Assembly: GCA_963708025.1 (NCBI GenBank)
Contig: CAVPSB010000049.1
Coordinates: forward strand, 128,001-192,000
DNA length: 64,000 nucleotides
Origin: an uncultured Candidatus Rokubacteria bacterium
GTDB taxonomy: Bacteria > Methylomirabilota > Methylomirabilia > Rokubacteriales > DASRDR01
Direction of reading: 5' to 3'
Part shown: positions 38,766 to 52,519 of the stretch, in pieces
Position numbering within the stretch: position 1 is the stretch's first letter
Layout of the letters: every line of letters starts with the position of its first letter
Position numbers and translations under genes: made by a program
The notes under the pieces: model-generated
What the model was told of the DNA's origin: nothing
The model's input: only the letters and a program-made list of their open reading frames with translations
Databases searched by the model: none

Positions 38766-38885
38766 TCACTCCTCCCTGCCCTCGGTCGCCTTCGCCAACG
38801 GGACCATCGCCCGCCTCGTGGACTCCCGCATGGCGGCCTGGGTCCGGTGCAGGGCGTCACCGATGTCCTCCTTGTCGACGATCCA
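38766..38885 (-). pseudogene. Possible C-terminal remnant of a tyrosine integrase
   Basis: IVDKEDIGDAL... resembles the YxIVxxxDLxxA integrase tail; followed by the direct repeat TTGTGCGGG x2 (38742-38762). Confidence 0.4.
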
Positions 38886-39393
38886 AAACCGCGCGTTCGC
38901 GGAGGCGCAGGGCTGGCAGGCGGTGGCGGACGTGGACCATGGCATCTCCGGTGCGAAGGAACGACGCCCCGCGCTCGATGCGCTGATGGCAGCCGTCCGC
39001 ACCCACAAGGCTGAGGTGGTCGCGTGCGTGAAGCTAGACCGGCTCGCCCGCAGTGTTCGGCACCTGGTGATGGTCGCCCAGGAGCCGGAGGCGCTTGGCG
39101 TTCATCTGGTCGTGCACGACGAGGCGATTGATACCACGACGCCGTCCGGGCGGCTGCTGTTTCACGTCTTGGCTGCCATTGCGGAGTTCGAGCGGGAGTT
39201 GATTCGGGAGCGGGTCGTGGCCGGCGTGCGCCATGCGAAGGTTCTGGGTCGGCGGCTCGGGCGGCCCCGGCTCCATCATGTGGACTCTGCCCGGGCCCGG
39301 GCGCTGCTGGGGCAGGGACTCACGCTCCGTGCGGTGGCGCGCGCGCTCCACACCCATGCCACCACGGTCAAGCGCGCCCTCGGCCGGGCGTAG
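38880..39393 (+). pseudogene. Serine recombinase (resolvase) lacking the N-terminal catalytic motif
   Basis: DHGISGAKERRPAL, KLDRLARS, IDTTTPSGRL.FH...AIAEFERELI.ER, GRP, C-terminal HTH; no recognisable YxRVS. Confidence 0.8.
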
Positions 39394-39550
39394 CAAATCC
39401 TGCCTGCCGACAGCCCCATAAGTTCCCGCCGCTTGGGGACCTGGCGGGCGGCGCGAAACTCAAGGCTGAAGCTCTGGCCGTGGCCGTAGCGACGTCGAGG
39501 GACGCGCTCCGGCTGAGCCGCGCTGCGCGACGGTGAATTTCTTCCAGATT

Positions 39551-39685
39551 CTACGGGGTCAGTGCTAGACGGGGACGAGCGTCTATGTCCCCGTACCCGA
39601 TCGGTTGGCCGGTGATCTCCGCGAGCTTCTCCTCGTACTTGACCAGTTCGGGCTCGATGAACTGCGGTTTCCGCTCTTCCTGCAT
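39551..39685 (-). CDS. 44-aa RiPP-precursor-like peptide
   Basis: MQEERKPQFIEPELVKYEEKLAEITGQPIGYGDIDARPRLALTP; GGAGG RBS; TTGACG-N17-CACGAT at 39794-39766. Confidence 0.6.
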   Translation of the reverse strand: MQEERKPQFIEPELVKYEEKLAEITGQPIGYGDIDARPRLALTP

Positions 39686-40122
39686 AAATCCTCCGTCCGG
39701 CAGGAGGTGGCTCTTCCTGGATGCGTCCCGCTGACGTCCGTCAGGACGACACGTGGGGCGAAGTCATCGTGAACGTCTGCCGACACGCCGTCAAGATGAA
39801 AGAGTTTGCACCCACGCCCGTCTTGATTGCGTAGCTCGCGGCGATCTTCCACCGGTCGGCTCGGCGCGCGGGACCGGCGGGCGCGCTCGTCCAAGCCGCG
39901 CGGACGGCGTCTCGGCCTGACGGCGCCCGCACTCCGCCCTGAGCGCGGCGGCCGCGCGCTCGCACGAACCTTGGGTACGCTAGGTCTTCACCGGTTCCTG
40001 GCCTGCATCCCACAGAACAAGGCCCCGTTCAAAGAGTTGATAGACGCCATCGACCCCGCGAGCGCGGGGCTGCCCGTCAACCAGGCCCGCGAGCCCCGCG
40101 ACGAGCGGCGGTCGCCGGCGGC

Positions 40123-40467
40123 TCAGACGAGGATCGCTTCCCCCAGCACCACGTGCTTGGCCGGGGCCTTGCGGGCCGGGGCCTTGGATTTCGCCACCGT
40201 CTTGTGGCCCGTCTTCTGAGGGCCGGCGGCCTTGTGCGCCGGGGCCGCCTTGTGGGTGGCGGCCGTCTTGTGGACGCCGGCCTTGCGCTCGGCCGTCTGC
40301 GCCGGCGCCTTCTTCGCGGCCGGCTTCGCCGACTTCGCCTTGGGCGCGGCGGGCTTCACGTCGCCGTCGAGCGCCGAGGGGGGAATGCCCGGGCCTGCCG
40401 TCTGGGCGAGGGCGGCCGGAGCCAGCAGCGCCACACCGAGGAGCATCGCGGTGATCAGGACTCCCAC
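40123..40467 (-). CDS. Small exported Lys/Ala-rich low-complexity protein
   Basis: GGAGG RBS, signal peptide ending ALA-Q, KPAAKKAPA-type repeats. Confidence 0.7.
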   Translation of the reverse strand: MGVLITAMLLGVALLAPAALAQTAGPGIPPSALDGDVKPAAPKAKSAKPAAKKAPAQTAERKAGVHKTAATHKAAPAHKAAGPQKTGHKTVAKSKAPARKAPAKHVVLGEAILV

Positions 40468-40771
40468 GGTACCTCCCTTTCTACGGGGTCGATGGGGGAT
40501 CGGACTTTCGGCGCGTCGGGCGGCGTCGCGGCCGGGGCGAGCCGGCCGGCCTGGACCGGGGCCGCGGTCGGGCCGGATCGATCCGGACCGGCGCCGTGGC
40601 CGAAGTGGCCGGGACATCCCCGGCGAGCCCACCGTGAGCGGACCGAAGCGCTCGCCGCTGCTTCTCGGCTCGCAACTGGGCCAGCGCCTCGGCCAGCACC
40701 CCCAGCGCGAAGCTGCTCACGTCGAGCCATCGCCCCGGCCGGCGCCGAATCGACGAGTACGTCACGGCCTC

Positions 40772-41545
40772 TCAGCGTGCCGCCCGCGCGCGGAGCGCGC
40801 CGACGAGACCGGCCATGACGTCCCCGGCCTTGCCGGGGATGACGACGTCGGCGAGGTGGTCGAGGTGCGTGGGGGTGAGGTTGACGATGACGAGCCGGGC
40901 GCCGGCCTCCTTCGCGTAGATCGGCATGTACGCGGCCGGGTAGACAACCAGCGACGACCCGACCACCAGGACGCAGCCGGCGCGCCGGGCCCGTTCCTCG
41001 GCGAGCTGCGTCTCGCGGGCCGGCATCGGCTCGCCGAACAGGATCGTGTGCGGCTTGAGGATCCCGCCGCAGGTGCGACAGTCCGGCACCGGCTCCCCCG
41101 ACTCCAGCCGCGCCTGAATCTCGTCGCGGGCGTACGGGGCGGCGCAGCCGAGACAGCGGACGCGCGTGGCGTTGCCGTGCAGCTCGATGACTTTCTCGGC
41201 CGGCGTGCCGGCGCGCTGGTGGAGGTTGTCGATGTTCTGCGTGATCACGCAGTCCAGCAGGCCGAGCGCGTCGAGCGCGGCGATCGCGTGGTGGGCGGGG
41301 TTGGGTCGGGCCGCGCTGACGGTCGCGTACAGCTCGCGGCCGACCGCCCAGTACTTCCGCCGCCCCTCGTCCGAGCGCATGAAGCTCCGGTACGAGAAGT
41401 CGTCGGGATCGTGCCGGGTCCATAGCCCGCCCGGGCCGCGGAAGTCGGGGATCCCCGACTCGGTGGAGACGCCCGCCCCGGTGAAGACGACGACGGGACC
41501 GGCCGTCACGGTGAGGTCGGCGGCCCTGTCGATCAGGTCATCCAT
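40772..41545 (-). CDS. cobB: NAD-dependent protein deacylase (sirtuin)
   Basis: TGAGVSTESGIPDFRG, TQNIDNLH, ELHGN, CxxC...CxxC, GSSL.VYPAA. Confidence 0.92.
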   Translation of the reverse strand: MDDLIDRAADLTVTAGPVVVFTGAGVSTESGIPDFRGPGGLWTRHDPDDFSYRSFMRSDEGRRKYWAVGRELYATVSAARPNPAHHAIAALDALGLLDCVITQNIDNLHQRAGTPAEKVIELHGNATRVRCLGCAAPYARDEIQARLESGEPVPDCRTCGGILKPHTILFGEPMPARETQLAEERARRAGCVLVVGSSLVVYPAAYMPIYAKEAGARLVIVNLTPTHLDHLADVVIPGKAGDVMAGLVGALRARAAR

Positions 41546-41612
41546 GGTGGAGGCTCGCCATCGAGGCTACCAGATGTAGGGGCCGGGGCTCTGCAAGAAT
41601 TTCGCGGACGGG

Positions 41613-41712
41613 CTCAGTTCGGGACCTCCCGCCCACCCGGTCCTTGGACGGCCTTCGGCCTTTGGCTGGGGGGAGGGGGAGCCGGAGAACCCCATTCCTT
41701 CACAGGCCCTCA
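41613..41712 (-). repeat. Repeat family A copy directly after the patatin stop
   Basis: CTCAGTTCGGGACCTCCCGCCCACCC...GGACGGCCTTCGGCC...CCATTCCTTCACAGGCC-CTCA. Confidence 0.88.
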
Positions 41713-42657
41713 GTTTCGATAGCCGAGCGCCTCCAGGCAGGCGAGCCCGTCGCGGCGGCCGAGGTCGACCAGCCGTCCGAGCCGCTCACCGTCGAAGTCG
41801 AAGGGCCGGAGCGCGAGCGGCTCGGAGGGCCGCAGCACGCGGATCTCCACCCCCGGGTGCCGGAAGCCGGCCAGCTCGACGTCGCGGAGGATCTCCCGGG
41901 CCAGCGCGATCTCGAACGCGCGCTCGAGGACGGGCTGAACGGTGTCGCCGGCGAGGCGCTGGCCCTCGTAGCCCAGCACGACGAGCAGCCGGTCCAGCGG
42001 ATGCGCGTCCAGCAGCTCGAGGGTCGGGGCCCGCTGGACGATGCCGCCGTCCACGAGGACGCCCCCCGCGTGCGGCACGGCGGGAAAGACCGCCGGGATC
42101 GTCGAGCTCGCCAGGAGCGCCTCGACGGTGAGGCTCTCGTTGTCGAAGCGGCGCGCCTGTCCCGAGGTGAGGTCGGCGGCCAGGACCAGGAGACGGACCG
42201 GGGCCGCCCGGAGCCGCCCCAGGTCCAGGTGGCGCTCGATCGTCCGGCGGAGCGGCGCCGGGTCGAGGACGGCCCGGGCCTTACGGAGATAGGCGAGCCC
42301 GAGCCAGCCGGGCAGCAGGCCGCCGAAGACCGTCGCCGCCGGATAGGCGAAGACGTCCTCCCGGCGGAGGCTGCGCCAGAGGCCGGCCAGGCGCGGCGCC
42401 TCGCCAGTCGCCACCAGGACCGCGTTGAGCGCGCCGGACGAGGTGCCGGCCACGGCCGCCGGGACCACACCCCGGTCGTGGAGGGCGAGGGCCACCCCCG
42501 CCTCGTACGCCGCCTTGGCCCCACCCCCGGAGAAGACCACGCCGACCCGCAGGCCGGCCGGCTCGCGTCCACTCGGCTCGCAGGCGGCCGCCGGCCACGG
42601 CGCCACCACGGCGGCAACGAGCATCACCGCCCCCCAGCGGTTCAAGCTGGGAGTCAC
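41710..42657 (-). CDS. Patatin-like phospholipase/esterase, probably exported
   Basis: SGGGAKAAYEAG, GTSSG nucleophile, DGG. Start uncertain (42657 or 42624). Confidence 0.85.
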   Translation of the reverse strand: MTPSLNRWGAVMLVAAVVAPWPAAACEPSGREPAGLRVGVVFSGGGAKAAYEAGVALALHDRGVVPAAVAGTSSGALNAVLVATGEAPRLAGLWRSLRREDVFAYPAATVFGGLLPGWLGLAYLRKARAVLDPAPLRRTIERHLDLGRLRAAPVRLLVLAADLTSGQARRFDNESLTVEALLASSTIPAVFPAVPHAGGVLVDGGIVQRAPTLELLDAHPLDRLLVVLGYEGQRLAGDTVQPVLERAFEIALAREILRDVELAGFRHPGVEIRVLRPSEPLALRPFDFDGERLGRLVDLGRRDGLACLEALGYRN

Positions 42658-42830
42658 GTCTGGGCCACCTGGCATTCTGGTTGGCCGCGAGCGGTCACGG
42701 CCGCGAGGATCCACATTCGCCGGTCGGCGTCGGGTTCCAGGACCCGCACCCGCTCGCCTCGCGGTTATCGCGGAGGGCGGCTTCTCCCACCGGACCCGGG
42801 GGCTGCCGAGCAGGCGCCGGCAAGCCGCTC

Positions 42831-43271
42831 CTACTTCTGTCCAGCCTTCTTCGACAGGGAGGCCTGCAGGTCCTTCTCGATGTTTTTCAGCCACCCCTTG
42901 GGAATCGCGGGCTCGAGCTGACCGGTTTGGGGCGACTTGTAGCGCGAGTCGTTCAGGATCTTGACCAGTGGCCCCTCGACTTTCAGGATGACCTTGGCGT
43001 CGAAGCCGCGGTGCACGAGCGTGCCGACGACCTGCTGCGGCGAGCGTTCCGTCACCGTCCACTTGCGGCCCTCGAGCGTCGACACCAGCGCCGACTCGAC
43101 CTCGGCTTCGGTCAGGCTCGGGGGCAGCGGCACCGACAGCGGCTGGGCGTTGTACTTCGCGGCTTCATCGCCACCCATGACCGTCTGACCCGCGACAGGC
43201 ACCGGCGTCCTCAGCATCGCTCCCACGAGCGCGAGCGCGGCGACCACCCAGACCACGTGTCTCGATCTCAT
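42831..43271 (-). CDS. Hypothetical exported protein
   Basis: Signal-peptide-like N-terminus; GC3-rich codons; GGAGG upstream. Confidence 0.7.
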   Translation of the reverse strand: MRSRHVVWVVAALALVGAMLRTPVPVAGQTVMGGDEAAKYNAQPLSVPLPPSLTEAEVESALVSTLEGRKWTVTERSPQQVVGTLVHRGFDAKVILKVEGPLVKILNDSRYKSPQTGQLEPAIPKGWLKNIEKDLQASLSKKAGQK

Positions 43272-45696: not shown

Positions 45697-46626
45697 TCAG
45701 CGGGCGGCGTACGTCGCGGGATCCTGGTCGAACCGGCGCTTGCAGCCGGCGCCGCAGAAGTAGACGCGCCGGCCCGCGACCTCGGACACGTACCGGGCCT
45801 GGGCGATCTCGACGGTCATGCCGCAAATCGGGTCGAGGGCATCCACGCCGAGAGCCGGTTCGGCAGCGAGCGCGGCCGGGGGCGGCTCGGGCTGGCGCGT
45901 CCGCCGGGCCTGGACGATCTCAGCCAGGATGCTGACGGCGATCTCCTCGGGGGTCACCGCGCCGAGATCGAGGCCGGCGGGCGCCTTGAGTCGCTCCGTC
46001 GGAACGTCGCGCGCCGTCAGTGTCTCGACCACCGCCCGGGCCCGCTTCGGGCTTGCGACCAGGCTGACGTAGCACGCCTCGGTTCTCAAGATACGCTCCA
46101 GGGCCGCCTCGTCGAAGCGCCCGTGGGTCGCCACGACGACCGCCGTCTCCGGGGCCAGGGCCACCCTCCCCAGCTCCGGCTCGCCCGCCACCGCGGTCAC
46201 CTCGAAGCCCACCGCCACGGCCAGCGTGGCCAGGGTCGCCACGACCGGGCCGCTCCCGACCAGGACGAGGGACGGCTTCGGGAGCACCGGCTCGACGTAG
46301 ATCTCCAGCGTGCCGCCGCTGTGACAGGGCATCGCGTGCTCCCTCACACCCTCCCGCGGGCTTCCGTGGGGCCGGGTCCCCTCGCCGGCCAGGGCCAGCA
46401 GCCGGGGCTGGCCGTCGCGCATGGCGGCCAGGGCCTCCCGCACGACGAGGGGCTCGGCGCAGCTCCCGCCGATCCACCCCACCACCGTGCCGTCCGGTCG
46501 GACGAGGGCCTTGGCGCCGACCTTCGCCGAGGTGGGCCGCTCGCAGCGGACGACCGTCGCCAGCGCGAACGGCTCCCCCCGCCGGGACAGCTCGAAGGCC
46601 TGCGCCAGCAGGCTGTCGGCGCTCAC
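45697..46626 (-). CDS. XdhC/CoxF-family Moco chaperone with C-terminal YHS domain
   Basis: LATVVR...PTSAK.G, GWIGGSCAE, CHSGG.LEIY.EP, PAGLDLGA.TPEEIAVSILAE, DPICGM...YFCGAGC. Confidence 0.88.
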   Translation of the reverse strand: MSADSLLAQAFELSRRGEPFALATVVRCERPTSAKVGAKALVRPDGTVVGWIGGSCAEPLVVREALAAMRDGQPRLLALAGEGTRPHGSPREGVREHAMPCHSGGTLEIYVEPVLPKPSLVLVGSGPVVATLATLAVAVGFEVTAVAGEPELGRVALAPETAVVVATHGRFDEAALERILRTEACYVSLVASPKRARAVVETLTARDVPTERLKAPAGLDLGAVTPEEIAVSILAEIVQARRTRQPEPPPAALAAEPALGVDALDPICGMTVEIAQARYVSEVAGRRVYFCGAGCKRRFDQDPATYAAR

Positions 46627-47180
46627 GCCTTGTCCGTCTCCCCGCCCAGGAAGCGCTTCACGGCCTGGCCCACCGCCTTGGCGCCGAGCGAGAGCGCATC
46701 GAGCGATTGCGGGGCGTCCGGGGCCGGCGCCCCCGCCAGCTTCTGCTGCATGTTGGCGGCGAACTGGCGGAAGATCTGCGTCGACACGCTCTCGATCATC
46801 CCCCGGCCCAGCTGGGCGAGGAGCCCCCTGAGGCTCACCTCCGAGGCGACCCGGACCTCGGTGCCGCCGTTCGTCGGCTGGAGGCGGCTCTGCATCCGCA
46901 TCTCGGCGCCCCCCCGCCCCTTGACGTCTTGGCCGCTGCCCACCATCCCCGCCTCCCAGCGGTCGGGGTCGAGTCGGTCGAAGCGGATGGTGCCCTTGTA
47001 ACTCGTGGTGACGGGTCCCACCTTCACGGTCATGGTTCCCCGCCAGGTCCGCTCGTCCACCTGCTCCGTGATCGCCGCGCCGGGGAGGCAGGTCGCCACC
47101 TCGCGCGGGTCGGTCAGGAGCGCCCACACGCGCTCCGGCGGCGCCTCCAGGACGACGGTCTGCTCGATCTTCAGGGCCAT
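46623..47180 (-). CDS. coxG: CoxG/SRPBCC-family protein
   Basis: VW..LTDP..VA.CLPGA, VKVGP, G.LAQLGRGMI. Confidence 0.85.
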   Translation of the reverse strand: MALKIEQTVVLEAPPERVWALLTDPREVATCLPGAAITEQVDERTWRGTMTVKVGPVTTSYKGTIRFDRLDPDRWEAGMVGSGQDVKGRGGAEMRMQSRLQPTNGGTEVRVASEVSLRGLLAQLGRGMIESVSTQIFRQFAANMQQKLAGAPAPDAPQSLDALSLGAKAVGQAVKRFLGGETDKA

Positions 47181-47224
47181 GGACTCCTCACTCGCCCAGC
47201 CGGCGGGTCGCACGTCCGCACTCG

Positions 47225-47253
47225 TTTGTATGCCCGGCCGCGCCGGATGTCAA
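47225..47253 (-). promoter_or_regulatory. Sigma70-type promoter of coxG
   Basis: TTGACA-N17-TACAAA on the minus strand. Confidence 0.6.
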
Positions 47254-47409
47254 TGTGGCCGGCCGGGCGAAATTGGACAGTGACGACGGCATCCTGCTAG
47301 ACTTCCGGACCACGATGGTTTCCACGGACGCGGGCGACCTCGCGCGCTTCGGGGGCAAGCGGCGACGTCGTGAGCGGGCCGGCGGCGCGCCGCCCGGCGA
47401 CCTCCCACG

Positions 47410-49395
47410 GTGGCGCAGGCCGCGACCACGTCCCGAGTGGAAGGGGCGCCACCCTGGCCTGGACGCTCGACGGCGCTCTCGGGTGGCCTGCTGGTCCTCG
47501 CGAGCGTCTTGTGGCTGGCGGGGCTGCCGCCGGCCCTCGTCGCCGCCCTCGCCGCTGCCGGCACCGTCGGCACGGTGACCGGACTCCTCTGGCTGGGCTC
47601 GTCCCGGGCGCTCCAGCGCAACCTGGAGCTGGCGCGCCGGGCGACGCCCGAGCTGTCCTCGACCGCGCACCGGCTGTCCGACCTGGCCGACGCCATCGCC
47701 GGTGGCGCCCAGGGGCAGGCGTCGCGAGTCGGCGAGGTCGCGGCGGCGGTGGAGGAGCTCTCGGCGTCGGTCGTCGACGTGGCCCGGCACGCCGACCACG
47801 CGTCTGACTCCGTCAAGCAGAGCGTGGCCTCGACGGAGGACGGCTTCCGCCAGGCCCGCGAGGCGATCGCGGCCATCCGGCGCGTTGCCGCCTCGCTCGA
47901 GCGGTCGGCCGCCGTCATCCAGAAGCTCGAGGAGACCCAGGGGCGCATCGCCGCCGTCGTCAACGTCATCCGCCAGGTCGCGAACGAGACGAACCTGCTG
48001 GCCCTGAACGCCGCCGTGGAAGCCGCCCGCGCCGGCCAGCACGGCGCCGCGTTCGCGGTGGTGGCCGGCGAGGTCCGGGACCTGGCCAACCGGACCAAGA
48101 CCGCCACCGGCGAGATCGCCGCCATGGTGACCGGCGTCGTGAACGAGATCGGGCGGGCGGTGGACACCGTCCGGGGCGTCGGCGCCGAGGTCGACGCCGG
48201 CGTGCGTCTGGTCACGGCCAGCGGCGAGCACTTCGGGGCCATCCGCGAGCGTGTGGCACAGATGCAGGACGCCGTCGCGCAGATCGCCCAGGCCGCCACC
48301 CAGCAGTCCTCGGCCACGCGCGACATCGCGCGGGCCATGGAGGCGCTGACCGCGGCCAGCCACGCCGCCGCCGGCCAGGCCAGCACCGTGTCGCAGGCCA
48401 GCCAGACCCTCACGGTGCTGGCCGACGAGATGGGGGGCCGGCTCCAGGCCCGCCACTCGGCGCTCGTCCGTCGCGGACGCTCCCGCGTGCTCCGGCTGGT
48501 GCTCCTCGAGCAGGGCTCCCTGGCGCCGCGAGCGCTGCTGCGCATGGCGGATCGGATCGAGGCGGCGTCGGGCGGGCGCCTCCGGGTCGAGCGGATCGTC
48601 GACGAGAGCCTGGGCGAGCGTGACATGATCGCCCAGCTCCGGCGCGGGGAAGCGGCGTGCAGCTTCTCCACCGCCGTCGTCCTCTCCAACTACGTCCCCG
48701 CGCTGCAGGCGCTCGCGCTCCCCTACGCGTTCGGAAGCTACCAGGAGCTCTTCCGGGTGGTCGACGGCCCGGTCGGCATGAGGCTCCTCGACCGCCTCCG
48801 CCCGCTCGGGCTCCTCCCCCTGGGATTCCTCGAACACGGCCCGCGCCACTTCACCAGCCGCCGGCCCATCCGGCAGCCGGGCGACCTGCGCGGGATGGTC
48901 ATGCGGATCCAGGAGTCGAGCGTGGGCAAGGCCTTCGCGCATGCCCTCGGCGCCACCCCTCGCGCCCTGTCCCGGCCCGAGTTCCGGCGGGAGCTGGAGC
49001 GCGGGGCGATCGACGCTTCCGACAACACGCTGGTCATCATCGCGGACTCGCCCGCGATTCGCCGCCACCATCCTTACGTCACCCTCGACGCCCACTGCTT
49101 CACGCCGACCGTCCTCCTGTTCTCCGAGGCGGTCTTCCGCGAGCTGTCCCCCGACCTGCAGGCGATCGTCGCGGAGGCGGCCCGCGAGGCCATCGCCTGG
49201 CAGCGCCAGTCCACCATGACGGTCGAGCCCGAGATGCTCGAGAAGATCCGCCGCGAGGGGGTGACGCTCATCGAGCTGTCACCGGCGGATCGGGAGGCCT
49301 TCGCGCGGGCCGCGCGCGTCGTCTGGGAGCAGCTCGAGCCCGTCGTCGGCCCTGACGTCATGGCCGAGCTCCGGCACGCGCTCGGCCGCGGCTGA
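47410..49395 (+). CDS. Methyl-accepting chemotaxis protein fused to a C-terminal TRAP DctP substrate-binding domain
   Basis: Two short hydrophobic segments; IRQVANETNLLALNAAVEAARAGQHGAAFAVVAGEVRDLA; then LPYAF, G.RHFT, DLRGM.MR.QES, FA.ALGATP, IDASDN. Start uncertain. Confidence 0.85.
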   Translation: MAQAATTSRVEGAPPWPGRSTALSGGLLVLASVLWLAGLPPALVAALAAAGTVGTVTGLLWLGSSRALQRNLELARRATPELSSTAHRLSDLADAIAGGAQGQASRVGEVAAAVEELSASVVDVARHADHASDSVKQSVASTEDGFRQAREAIAAIRRVAASLERSAAVIQKLEETQGRIAAVVNVIRQVANETNLLALNAAVEAARAGQHGAAFAVVAGEVRDLANRTKTATGEIAAMVTGVVNEIGRAVDTVRGVGAEVDAGVRLVTASGEHFGAIRERVAQMQDAVAQIAQAATQQSSATRDIARAMEALTAASHAAAGQASTVSQASQTLTVLADEMGGRLQARHSALVRRGRSRVLRLVLLEQGSLAPRALLRMADRIEAASGGRLRVERIVDESLGERDMIAQLRRGEAACSFSTAVVLSNYVPALQALALPYAFGSYQELFRVVDGPVGMRLLDRLRPLGLLPLGFLEHGPRHFTSRRPIRQPGDLRGMVMRIQESSVGKAFAHALGATPRALSRPEFRRELERGAIDASDNTLVIIADSPAIRRHHPYVTLDAHCFTPTVLLFSEAVFRELSPDLQAIVAEAAREAIAWQRQSTMTVEPEMLEKIRREGVTLIELSPADREAFARAARVVWEQLEPVVGPDVMAELRHALGRG

Positions 49396-49531
49396 CAGCC
49401 CCCGTCCCGGATCCCTCGGCCCGGACCGCTCTCGCGACGCGCCTCGGAACGCCGGAATCATTGCGCGTCACGCAATGCTTCGCGCCCTTCCTCGAGGCAA
49501 GGCGCCCACCGGCAGGACTCTCCTCCATCCA

Positions 49532-49825
49532 TCAGTTCCGGCCTTCCCAAGAGCTCGGATGACGGTGGAGGTGGACGATCGCCACTATCGTGGGAACGTC
49601 GTTCTCCAGCGTGAAGAACACGCCAAACGGAAACCGGTGCAGGATGGCTCTTCGAGTTTCTCTGAAGACGACGGGGAACTGAAGAGGCGCTTCTTCGATT
49701 CGCCTAAAGGCGGTGCGCGTGGCCTGGAGGAACTCCGCGCCGAGACCGGGCCGCTCGGCCTCGTACCAGAGCGCCGCCTCGAGGGCGTCGGCCTCCGCCT
49801 CCGGGCGAACCCGGAGCTGGCGCAT
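49532..49825 (-). CDS. RelE/ParE-family toxin
   Basis: EAEAD..EAALWYE....GLG.EF, RR..L.RFPF, VAI.H..R.P..W. Confidence 0.85.
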   Translation of the reverse strand: MRQLRVRPEAEADALEAALWYEAERPGLGAEFLQATRTAFRRIEEAPLQFPVVFRETRRAILHRFPFGVFFTLENDVPTIVAIVHLHRHPSSWEGRN

Positions 49826-50068
49826 CTAGCGAGGCTGTCGCAGCCGCATCTGGAGACGTTCGAGAACTTCCTCCCACGGACGAGCCTCGTGGGGAGCGGC
49901 ACGATGTGCCGCGAGGCGCGCTTCCAGGAGCTCGCGCTGCCAGTCCGCGAGCGGCACCTGCTCGACGCTCGCCGCGATGTGGTCCCACAACGACTGGACG
50001 TAGTCGATCTGCTGATCGATGGGCAGCTCATCGAAACCGGGGGGCGGCATGGGTAAGCGATCACTCAT
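49826..50068 (-). CDS. Addiction-module antitoxin component
   Basis: LP..QQI.YVQSLWD.I...WQRELLE.RL...PWEEV; abuts the toxin gene. Confidence 0.82.
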   Translation of the reverse strand: MSDRLPMPPPGFDELPIDQQIDYVQSLWDHIAASVEQVPLADWQRELLEARLAAHRAAPHEARPWEEVLERLQMRLRQPR

Positions 50069-50151
50069 GACCCCTGAAGTATACTCCAGGGCCGCACCGC
50101 CACGAATCAGCCGGCGTCTCCCCGTCGAAGCGGAACTTCCGCGCCTGGCGG

Positions 50152-52519
50152 CTACTCGGTGACCCCGTGGTCGCGGAGGAGCTTCCAGACCTTGGCCGGC
50201 GTGATGGGGATGTCGACGTGGCGCACGCCGAGGTGCCACAGGGCGTCCACCACCGCGTTAGCGATGGCCGCCGGCGCCCCTACCGTGGCCGACTCGCCCA
50301 CCCCCTTGGCGCCCAGCGGGTGGTGCGGGGACGGCGTGCAGGTCTTGTCGGTCTCCCACTTCGGCGTCTCGACGGCCGTCGGCACCAGGTAGTCCACGAA
50401 GCTGCCGCCCCGGATGTTCCCCTGCTCGTCGTAGGAGATCTCCTCGTAGAGCGCGGGGGCCAGCCCCATGGTCAGCCCGCCGTGGATCTGCCCTTCCACG
50501 ATCATTGGGTTGATGATGTTGCCGCAGTCGTCCACCGCCACGAAGCGCCGGATCTTGACCTCGCCAGTCCCCCGGTCGATGTCCACGATGCAGATGTAGC
50601 TCCCGAAGGGGTAGGTCAGGTTGGGCGGGTCGTAGTAGGAGACGGCCTCCAGCCCCGCTTCCATCCCCTGCGGATGGTTGGTGTAGGCGGCGAAGGCGAT
50701 CTCCTGGATGGTCTTCGAGCGGCCGGGGGCGCCCTTGACCGAGAATTTCCCCGGCTCCCAGACCAGGTCCTCCTCGGCCGCCTCCAGGAGGTGGGCGGCG
50801 ATCTTCCGGGCCTTGTCCCGGACCTTGCGCGCCGCCATCGCCGCGGCGGCGCCGCCGACGGGCGTGGAGCGGCTGGCGTAGGTGCCGAGGCCGTAGGGCG
50901 CGGTGTCGGTGTCGCCCTCCTCGACCTGGATGTCCTTGGCCGGGATGCCGAGCTCCTCGGCCAGGATCTGAGCGTACGTGGTCTCGTGCCCCTGGCCCTG
51001 GGACTTGGTGCCGAAGCGCGCGATCGCCTTGCCGGTGGGATGGACCCGGATCTCGCAGCTGTCGAACATCTTGAGGCCGAGGATGTCGAAGTGCTTCGAC
51101 GGCCCCGCCCCGACGATCTCGGTGAAGCTCGAGATGCCGATCCCCATCAGCTCGCCCCGCTGGCGCTTCTCCGCCTGCTCGCGACGGGCCCCGGCGTAGT
51201 CGATCCGCTCCATGGCCTTCCGGAGGGCGGCGCCGTAGTCGCCGCTGTCGTACTCCCAGCCGAGCGCCGACTTGTAGGGGAACTGCTCGGGCTTGATGAA
51301 GTTCTTGAGCCGGAGCTCGGCCGCGTCCATCCCGAGCTGGTGGGCCATGAGGTCCGTCATCCGCTCGATGGCGTGGACGGCCTCGGTCACCCGGAAGGAG
51401 CAGCGGTAGGCGATCCCCCCCGGCGGCTTGTTCGTGTAGACGCCGTCCACCTCCACGTGGGCCGCCTTGAGGTCATAGGAGCCGGTGCAGATGTGGAAGA
51501 GCCCCGCCGGGAATTTCGACGGGTTCGCCGCCGCGTCGGTGTAGCCGTGGTCGGCCAGCGTCTTGATGCGGAGCGCGGTCAGCCGGCCATCCTTGGTCGC
51601 GGCCAGCTCGGCCTTCATGTGGTAGTCGCGGGCGAAGGAGTCGGCCTGGAGGTTCTCCATCCGGTCCTCGATCCACTTGACCGGGGCGCCGGTCAGGACC
51701 GAGGCGGCGACGGCGATCACGTAGCCCGGGTACACGGGGACCTTGCCGCCGAAGCCGCCGCCGATGTCGGGGGAGATGATCCGGATCTTGTGCTCCTCGA
51801 GGCCGACGTGGCCGGCGACCAGGGCGAACACCGTGCGGATCGCGTGGGGCGCCTGCGTGGTCATCCACACCGTGAGCTTCCCGCTGACCTTGTCGAAGCT
51901 GGCGACGCAGCCGCACGTCTCGATGGAGGCGACGTGGATCCGCGGGAGGTAGATGTCCTGGGTCACCGTGACCGCCGCGTCCTTGAACGCCCGGTCGGTG
52001 GCGGCCCGGTCGCCCCACTCCCAGTGCCAGATGTGGTTGTCCTTCTTGTCCTTCTTGTCGGTGCGCAGCACCGGGGCGCCGGGCTCGAGGGCCTTGTGGG
52101 GATCGACCACGACCGGCAGCGGCTCGTACTCGACCTCCACCGCGTTCGACGCCGTCGGCCGCCGCGTAGCGACTGGTGGCCAGGACGGCCGCCACCTCCT
52201 GGGCCTGGTACATGACCTTCTCGACCGGCAGCACCATCTGGGTGTCCGACATCAGAGTCGGCATCCAGTGGAGGTTGTACTTGGCCAGGTCCTGGCCGGT
52301 GATGACGGCGAGGACCCCGGGCGTCGCGAGGGCGCGCGTGGAGTCGATCTTCTTGATCCGGGCGTGGGCGAAGGGGCTCCGGACGATGTCGAGGTAGAGC
52401 ATCCCCGGGAGCTGGACGTCGTTGACGTACGTCCCCTTCCCCCGGATGAAGCGCGGGTCCTCCTTGCGCTTCATCGAGTGCCCCATCCCGGACACTTCCG
52501 GCGACGTGCGGGGTGCCAT
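50152..52519 (-). CDS. coxL: Form I aerobic CO dehydrogenase large subunit, one frameshift near 52145
   Basis: RKEDPRFIRGKG, GGGFGGK, AYRCSFR (51391-51411), QGQGHET, GTYASRS, GAKGVGE. Confidence 0.92.

Follow-up and report, generated by a model that had tools for sequence, protein, structure and literature searches.

A chemoreceptor signalling domain fused to a TRAP-type substrate-binding domain in Candidatus Rokubacteria: architecture, relatives and a possible intracellular sensing role

What could a chemoreceptor sense if it has no periplasmic sensor and carries, behind its signalling domain, the binding domain of a transporter? The question is raised by one gene in a stretch of 64,000 nucleotides (hereafter the window) from an uncultured Candidatus Rokubacteria bacterium (GenBank assembly GCA_963708025.1, contig CAVPSB010000049.1, positions 128,001 to 192,000). 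Its product combines the signalling domain of a methyl-accepting chemotaxis protein (MCP) with a DctP domain, the substrate-binding fold of TRAP (tripartite ATP-independent periplasmic) transporters. The gene is intact and encodes a membrane-anchored chemoreceptor, and the DctP domain is its only candidate sensor. We consider it probable, with appreciable room for doubt, that the protein is a receptor for an intracellular organic acid that feeds a non-flagellar chemosensory pathway. The coordinates of the features discussed are collected in Table 1.

The fused receptor and its junction

An earlier note, made from the letters of this stretch, had described a single open reading frame (ORF) of 661 codons with two closely spaced hydrophobic segments and no periplasmic sensor, followed by a canonical MCP hairpin and a full DctP fold that lacks a signal peptide. 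The ORF list, hydropathy, Pfam, NCBIfam, AlphaFold2 and Foldseek all bear this description out. Pfam places MCPsignal at residues 171-314 (E 2e-37, 129.1 bits vs. a gathering cut-off of 34.6) and DctP at residues 374-641 (E 6.4e-55, 186.9 bits vs. a cut-off of 23.4). The NCBIfam model TRAP_S1 gives 164.5 bits against a cut-off of 50, while the stricter NCBIfam model TIGR00787 (dctP) gives 147.8 bits, under its cut-off of 175.05. Only three residues separate the two N-terminal helices, which leaves no room for a periplasmic sensor, and the hydropathy scan finds no further hydrophobic segment at threshold in residues 64-661. Neither the Pfam scan nor the AlphaFold2 model reveals a HAMP domain in the window protein; in the model the second membrane helix continues directly into the N arm of the MCP hairpin.

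The AlphaFold2 model was built from an alignment with 17 relatives. As the note had proposed structure prediction for a check, it is worth recording that the model gives a helical hairpin and then a confident DctP fold. The helices span residues 18-36, 41-138 and 143-207, then, after a turn at 208-212, residues 213-275 and 282-346. An alpha/beta domain follows from residue 352 with a predicted local distance difference test score (pLDDT) of 80-96. The helical MCP part has a pLDDT of about 50, as one would expect when a dimeric coiled coil is modelled as a monomer. In Foldseek the model matches TRAP binding proteins of solved structure with a target template-modelling (TM) score of about 0.9 (e.g., 7bbr, 4nq8, 4xeq, 9dsy). 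Sequence comparison gives 4p47, 4p9k and 4n8y as the closest proteins of solved structure, with E of about 1e-32 and 26-35% identity over about 280 residues, the identities being our own count from the printed alignments. The DctP domain takes over immediately behind the MCP helix, at about residue 352, with no preceding hydrophobic segment, so that the signal peptide of DctP proteins has no counterpart here. The linker between the two domains comprises 11 residues.

To meet CheA and CheW, an MCP signalling domain has to lie in the cytoplasm. Hydropathy detects no membrane segment between the MCP and DctP domains of the window protein, and membrane segments are absent throughout eleven related representatives and the whole 880-residue form described below. 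Taken together, the cytoplasmic signalling domain, the lack of an intervening segment and the soluble relatives strongly suggest that the DctP domain is cytoplasmic, the location that had been supposed for it at the outset.

The fusion is not an accident of assembly. Sixteen protein clusters (44-97% identity, 618-715 residues) have both Pfam domains in the same order. The junction, which follows the pattern ...LADE....L.A....RRGR..L.L..., is conserved and is ungapped in 11 of 17 sequences, with insertions of 1 or 2 residues in six (P0011-P0016). Contigs from four of four metagenome runs, belonging to four studies, bridge the junction (nucleotides 48445-48463), flanked on either side by 31 letters or more and free of indels. 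Each differs from the window by 4-22 letters; as assemblies of relatives, these contigs are independent of the present assembly. All 20 sequencing runs listed, none of them of RNA, hold less than half of the sampled words and thus contain relatives, not this strain. The conserved junction and the bridging contigs exclude a stop or frameshift between the domains near position 48450, where a check of the junction had been set beforehand. An assembly chimera was considered and is ruled out by the alignment of relatives, by the bridging contigs and by a collinear BLASTP match to a distant member of the family. A recent duplicate of a transporter DctP is likewise ruled out, since the transporter DctPs encoded elsewhere in the genome share only 26-34% identity with the domain. 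Judged by these comparisons, the fusion is old and under selection.

Relatives, forms and distribution

A profile of 17 sequences was compared with 1.84 billion representatives (one per 50%-identity cluster), and 32 of the best 150 match from MCP through DctP in one stretch. In a Pfam scan of 31 proteins, MCPsignal is followed by DctP in 28; the three exceptions are one double DctP and two ordinary MCPs. The family comes in three forms. The first has an N-terminal pair of membrane helices, in some members with HAMP, and a length of 670-720 residues (15 representatives beyond the group of the window protein). The second is fully soluble and has 570-620 residues. The third, also soluble, has about 880 residues and a signalling hairpin on either side of DctP (P0017-P0027, P0124). 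BLASTP of the window protein against a 879-residue member of the third form produces a single alignment over residues 180-650, with 32% identity and 14 gaps in 477 columns. The distance from the tip glycine to the start of DctP is 150 residues in both proteins. By the single collinear alignment and the equal spacing, the joint between MCP and DctP is one old invention common to the forms.

A search with a 720-residue member found both domains in 71 of the 120 clusters listed. The source names include Uliginosibacterium species, Propionivibrio dicarboxylicus, Viridibacterium curvum, Formivibrio, Rhodocyclaceae, a Holophaga metagenome-assembled genome and an Alteromonadaceae bacterium, and one close relative is named Candidatus Rokubacteria. 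In the ESM Atlas, one cluster of 888-residue proteins with both domains has 249 members, most commonly from Vulcanimicrobiota. The same resource holds other MCPsignal fusions, with Phosphonate-bd/NMT1 or with SBP_bac_3, which count 53-494 members per cluster and come mostly from Bacillota.

Among 251 genomes of the window's phylum, a search at E <= 1e-60 recovered the fusion in just one, that of the window itself. P0125-type proteins were found in 0/3 genomes behind earlier loci and in 0/401 sampled genomes of another order, the latter by a weak search that scored two candidates per genome. A contig scan with the family alignment and with generic motif patterns for the MCP tip and DctP kept 80 loci, all of them ordinary MCPs matching up to residue ~470. 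When metagenome contigs were scanned with the last 341 residues of the protein, the 10 loci obtained were ordinary DctPs of 28-29% identity, and the close relatives P0001-P0010 were not among them. On this sampling the architecture is recurrent but rare. It is already visible in databases under TRAP binding-protein labels: the sources call the fused proteins "TRAP transporter substrate-binding protein DctP", an annotation problem that masks their receptor nature. The earlier note had named a common and already characterised architecture as what would speak against its reading; no description of an MCP with a DctP domain was found in the literature searched, which did not extend to the main review of chemoreceptor sensor domains.

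Putative ligand, likely output and rival explanations

DctP-family proteins possess a conserved Arg (Arg-147 in SiaP) that contacts the ligand carboxylate electrostatically and is needed for high affinity, as stated in the part of Fischer et al. 2015 (PMC4646407) drawn on here. R499 of the window protein, in the motif DLRGMVMR, has as its aligned counterpart in 4p9k and 4n8y the Arg of DLKGLK[IM]R, and in 4p47 the Arg at the equivalent place. Its equivalence to Arg-147 of SiaP comes from these three alignments combined with PMC4646407, not from a direct alignment with SiaP. The residue conservation counts out of 31 given here refer to an alignment of the window protein and 30 representatives. 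In it R499 is invariant (31/31), as are G477, P438 and H562 (31/31 each), with R479 kept in 30/31 and D492 in 29/31. That a carboxylate-type Arg is retained had been noticed before, and its invariance strengthens the accompanying suggestion that the domain binds a carboxylate, which it may well do. The ligands of the nearest solved TRAP proteins, which we take to be mostly sugar and hydroxy acids, are no guide to the ligand here, since those proteins are only about 26-35% identical.

At the other end of the molecule, the AlphaFold2 helices and symmetric arm segments give the long antiparallel hairpin with heptad-matched arms that is typical of an MCP. Its tip has the pattern NLLALNAAVEAARAG..G..FAVVAGEVR, so the conserved CheA/CheW-contacting tip is present, and E204, G212 and F215 are invariant in 31/31. 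The genome has nine MCP genes. Seven share one identical tip, and the receptor of the chemosensory cluster C12 and the window receptor each have their own, the latter reading QHGAAF where the common tip has EQGRGF. The arm segments come from a direct tip-centred alignment of these nine receptors; an assignment of heptad class from Pfam coordinates was ambiguous and was dropped in its favour. The two paired 14-residue segments look like the pattern expected of a longer heptad class. As they are common only to the window protein and the C12 MCP, they are a weak pointer to the C12 pathway. The methylation-like motifs AAVEELSAS (112-120) and AATQQSSAT (295-303), so called from what we take to be the methylation consensus, are conserved in close relatives.

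The genome (8.17 Mb, completeness 99.67%) was examined for cheA and cheW, again a check proposed beforehand, and contains both in each of two che clusters (C3 and C12). Profiles of flagellin, FliM and FlhA have no matches in the genome (controls positive), which makes a flagellar output unlikely; PilM is present. With che genes present and these flagellar genes not, the output is probably pili or another function, and the che systems may serve either. On the receptor's own contig (C49), no che or dctM match was found besides the receptor gene, and dctQ was not searched for; the 20 DctM matches of the genome all lie on other contigs. The earlier statement that no che or dctQM genes are in the window thus holds for che and for dctM.

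For such a receptor we infer the following topology, ligand binding, transmission mechanism, pathway and output. The N-terminal two-helix hairpin would hold the receptor at the inner membrane face, and the only candidate input would be the DctP Venus-flytrap domain, joined to the C-terminal signalling helix where this ends, within the cytoplasm. Through R499 the domain would bind a carboxylate present in the cell, an organic or sugar acid, and closure of the DctP lobes would pull or twist the short linker. This linker is conserved within each subfamily, and its length and sequence vary across the wider family. Its movement could alter how the four-helix bundle packs at its membrane-proximal end, where transmembrane receptors take their input. 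The change would then travel to the hairpin tip and alter the control of CheA. The output is probably type IV pilus motility or some other cellular function, and a possible route is the C12 cluster, whose MCP has an equal bundle length.

Several points weigh against this proposal. The 5' end of this gene copy is irregular. The gene sits in an insert and was found in none of the 250 further genomes searched within the phylum, which may mean that it is dispensable. Confidence in the MCP part of the model is low, and the predicted geometry of the linker is accordingly not fixed by it. N539 is replaced in 7/31 family sequences (kept in 24/31), and the methylation-like motifs appear variable in the wider family, where E115 is kept in 8/31 and E116 in 13/31. 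The difference between QHGAAF and EQGRGF means that coupling to either CheA is not assured. No neighbouring gene hints at a ligand, and both ligand binding and signalling are predictions from sequence.

Among the alternatives, the one that survives best holds that the DctP domain serves structure or the binding of proteins (scaffold, oligomerisation, docking) and does not sense a small molecule, and that the receptor builds or anchors a chemosensory array. The 880-residue relatives, with a hairpin on each side of DctP, recall the array-spanning DosM as described in part of PMC7534058, and the domain has no known ligand. A scaffold is at odds with the invariance of R499, a ligand-only Arg, with the near invariance of R479 and D492, and with the retention of the entire two-lobe fold (target TM about 0.9). 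We regard the explanation as unlikely, and scaffold and sensing roles are in any case compatible.

It is less likely still that the family is real and this copy is damaged or a 5' assembly artefact, so that no working receptor is expressed. GTG 47410 is the first start codon downstream of an in-frame TGA at 47371, and the start codon and the first ~20 codons remain uncertain by comparison with relatives. The N-termini of the relatives are ~30-50 residues longer and begin MVSTD...; their counterpart in the window is spread over three frames at 47315-47470. Other genes of the assembly are split as well (coxL at 52145-52095; DctP and DctM matches), so indel errors are possible. Examples of DctP/DctM matches split over two adjacent frames in this genome (G000) are C13:282163-283003, C10:215532-216309, C2:219553-220783 and C19:41474-42776, which suggests that single-base indels are common in the assembly. 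Damage is nevertheless hard to reconcile with the frame itself, which is unbroken from GTG 47410 through both membrane helices and all domains. It also sits poorly with the contig of one relative, which differs from the window at 47430-47466 by four single-base indels that sum to zero and keep the frame. The composition of the gene is genome-like (GC 0.745, and GC at third codon positions of 0.947 as in neighbouring genes; genome GC 0.712). Ahead of the gene, the divergent spacer contains a promoter-like site (1 observed vs. a mean of 0.0 in 50 shuffles); this stretch is conserved in relatives and reads AKLDS.DGILLDFR in P0002 and P0003.

A further alternative ties the receptor functionally to the CO-dehydrogenase (cox) genes, for example as a sensor of a pathway metabolite. 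It draws on position, as the gene stands between coxL and coxG and diverges from coxG. On one flank lie coxG and xdhC/coxI (46623-47213 and 45697-47127, minus strand); on the other, an antitoxin gene and a small ORF are followed by coxL. However, in 3/3 relatives of the same family with both genes on one contig, coxL and coxG are 26, 342 and 756 nt apart with xdhC next, and neither the receptor nor the antitoxin ORFs were found between them. The orthologues of these relatives are 91-94% (coxL) and 66-73% (coxG) identical to those of the window. Nucleotide homology to the relatives ends at 47190-47194 and restarts at 50149-50152, exactly at the ends of a segment of 2.95 kb, which was thus inserted. 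No convincing direct or inverted repeats were found at its ends, and its two small ORFs have a GC of 0.65-0.67, under that of the surroundings. Since the antitoxin ORF overlaps the coxL stop, its true start is probably internal. The cox genes occur in 20/21 family genomes and the fusion in 1/251 phylum genomes. The adjoining coxL and coxG of the relatives, together with the insert, mean that the cox neighbourhood says nothing on function. The earlier note had placed the receptor inside the cox locus; the position stands, as an insertion site and not as a functional link. By these comparisons a link to cox is largely refuted and very improbable.

Two observations on the surroundings may be added. 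The coxL gene of the window has a frame change at 52095-52145 (minus strand): residues 3-255 of a relative's CoxL are matched in frame -2 (52903-52145) and residues 272-918 in frame -3 (52095-50155), while the CoxL proteins of relatives are single open frames of 706-969 residues. Either an assembly indel or a pseudogene accounts for the change. AYRCSFR, presumably the signature of form I CO dehydrogenase, lies in the C-terminal CoxL part. Upstream of the cox genes, the region 38818-43062 encodes a serine recombinase (Resolvase, 38818-39393), a SIR2 protein (40772-41545, minus strand) and a patatin-like phospholipase (41710-43062, minus strand), and could be a mobile or defence-related patch.

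The weakest alternative, an exported DctP domain that senses a periplasmic ligand as an ordinary binding-protein sensor, has on its side that DctP proteins are otherwise extracytoplasmic in the part of PMC8050422 concerned, but the MCP and DctP domains would then have to be separated by an odd number of membrane segments, and there are none. The hydropathy of the window protein and of its soluble relatives speaks against it; we reject it and give it hardly any credence.

Table 1. Features of the receptor gene, its surroundings and the chemosensory clusters of the genome (window positions unless a contig is named).
Feature	Position	Strand	Remarks
Promoter-like site TGGACA-18 nt-TAGACT, TG extension	47274..47303	+	In 196-nt divergent spacer between coxG and receptor gene; consensus match only
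Receptor gene	47410..49395	+	661 residues, one ORF, GTG start; membrane hairpin, MCP hairpin, linker, DctP domain
Hydrophobic helices at residues 21-39 and 43-63, with Pro-Pro-Ala between them	47470..47598	+	Hydropathy peaks 2.16 and 1.86; AlphaFold2 helices
MCP signalling hairpin, residues 64-346	47599..48447	+	Pfam MCPsignal; AlphaFold2 helices 41-207, 213-346
14-residue (two-heptad) N-arm segment	47887..47928	+	36 residues before G209; 7 of the genome's 9 MCPs lack it
Hairpin tip NLLALNAAVEAARAGQHGAAFAVVAGEVR, residues 195-223	47992..48078	+	Differs from the genome's common tip EQGRGF
Matching 14-residue C-arm segment	48142..48183	+	36 residues after G209; otherwise only in the MCP of the C12 che cluster
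Junction RHSALVRRGRSRVLRLV	48451..48501	+	End of C-arm helix, linker, first DctP strand
DctP (TRAP substrate-binding) fold, residues ~358-655	48481..49374	+	Pfam, NCBIfam, AlphaFold2, Foldseek; probably cytoplasmic
Codon of R499, Arg of DLRGMVMR	48904..48906	+	Aligned with Arg of three solved TRAP binding proteins
2.95-kb insert	47195..50148		Missing at the coxL-coxG junction of three relatives; holds receptor gene, antitoxin gene, small ORF
Small ORF, 97 residues	49532..49825	-	Adjoins antitoxin gene; presumed toxin partner; no Pfam match
Antitoxin-like ORF, Unstab_antitox domain (E 4e-12)	49826..50239	-	Overlaps coxL stop
C3 cluster	C3:2576-13531		CheY, CheZ-like, CheY, CheA, CheW, two MCPs, CheR, CheD, CheB
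C12 cluster	C12:161926-171205		Response regulator, CheW, Peripla_BP_6 protein, sCache MCP, 995-residue CheA-like protein (two Hpt domains), more response regulators

Significance and comparison with known systems

If the receptor does report an intracellular organic acid, a wider reading suggests itself. There may be a whole class of chemoreceptors, hitherto undescribed, in at least four phyla and in tethered, soluble and double-hairpin forms, in which a transporter binding protein relocated to the cytoplasm acts as a metabolite sensor, and by which cells steer, or regulate their pili and other outputs, according to the internal pool of an organic acid. We advance this tentatively, as something that could almost equally well be true or false. 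In the double-hairpin form, closure of the central DctP domain on its ligand could change how a sandwiched cytoplasmic array is spaced or ordered. The literature treats DctP-family proteins as extracytoplasmic parts of TRAP transporters, and chemoreceptor sensing is studied mostly at N-terminal, mostly periplasmic domains. A conserved family with the proposed function would mean a new type of chemoreceptor sensor and would put the TRAP binding fold in a new cellular place and role. Metabolism-dependent behaviour, in which the cell senses what is taken up or produced and not what is outside, would become directly accessible as well. The idea can be tested: cultured Rhodocyclales, among them Uliginosibacterium species, Propionivibrio dicarboxylicus and Viridibacterium curvum, appear among the named sources of members, and DctP domains are well suited to thermal-shift ligand screening.

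Two known receptors with C-terminal input domains offer themselves for comparison. Tlp1 of Azospirillum brasilense also has a periplasmic domain, whereas the window protein has none. TlpD of Helicobacter pylori has no membrane anchor, and its input-related CZB domain, a zinc-binding four-helix bundle, is C-terminal to the signalling domain. The sensor parts of TlpD and of the window protein share no homology. The likeness to TlpD, a cytoplasmic chemoreceptor (PMC13001251), lies in the C-terminal place of that domain and in sensing from inside the cell, as is proposed for the window protein. The likeness to Tlp1 is that of a cytoplasmic sensor domain which stands C-terminally behind the MCP domain and reports an intracellular small molecule to the chemotaxis pathway; in Tlp1 that domain is a small PilZ binding cyclic di-GMP (PMC3604760), in contrast to the 300-residue two-lobe DctP of the window protein. 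The earlier view that sensors are normally N-terminal in MCPs therefore has to be qualified, as C-terminal precedents exist.

DosM of Vibrio cholerae is a receptor with two signalling domains that spans and stabilises F9 cytoplasmic arrays, according to the part of PMC7534058 used here. The 880-residue sister form resembles it in being soluble and in having two signalling hairpins, and differs in the DctP domain between them. The window protein has a single tip and a hairpin in the membrane and so does not belong to the DosM type.

With the DctP-family TRAP proteins (SiaP, in the part of PMC4646407 concerned; 4p47, 4p9k, 4n8y, 7bbr) the DctP domain of the window protein has in common the fold and the carboxylate-binding Arg. 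Unlike them, it has no signal peptide, no dctM on its contig (dctQ was not searched for) and a score below the TIGR00787 cut-off, and it is fused behind a signalling domain. The parts of two reviews considered here (PMC8050422, PMC10443332) present DctP only as a free transporter protein and binding proteins as extracytosolic. In the same parts, binding proteins serve chemoreceptors outside the cell, either indirectly, as with Tar and maltose-binding protein, or as fused periplasmic sensors. The ESM Atlas fusions of MCPs with Phosphonate-bd/NMT1 or SBP_bac_3 likewise join a binding-protein fold to the receptor in one chain, with domains of other families. The periplasmic systems share with the window protein that a transporter-type binding protein supplies the ligand specificity of the chemoreceptor. 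Their action takes place in the periplasm, at the N-terminal end that does the sensing, whereas the DctP domain of the window protein is C-terminal and very probably cytoplasmic.

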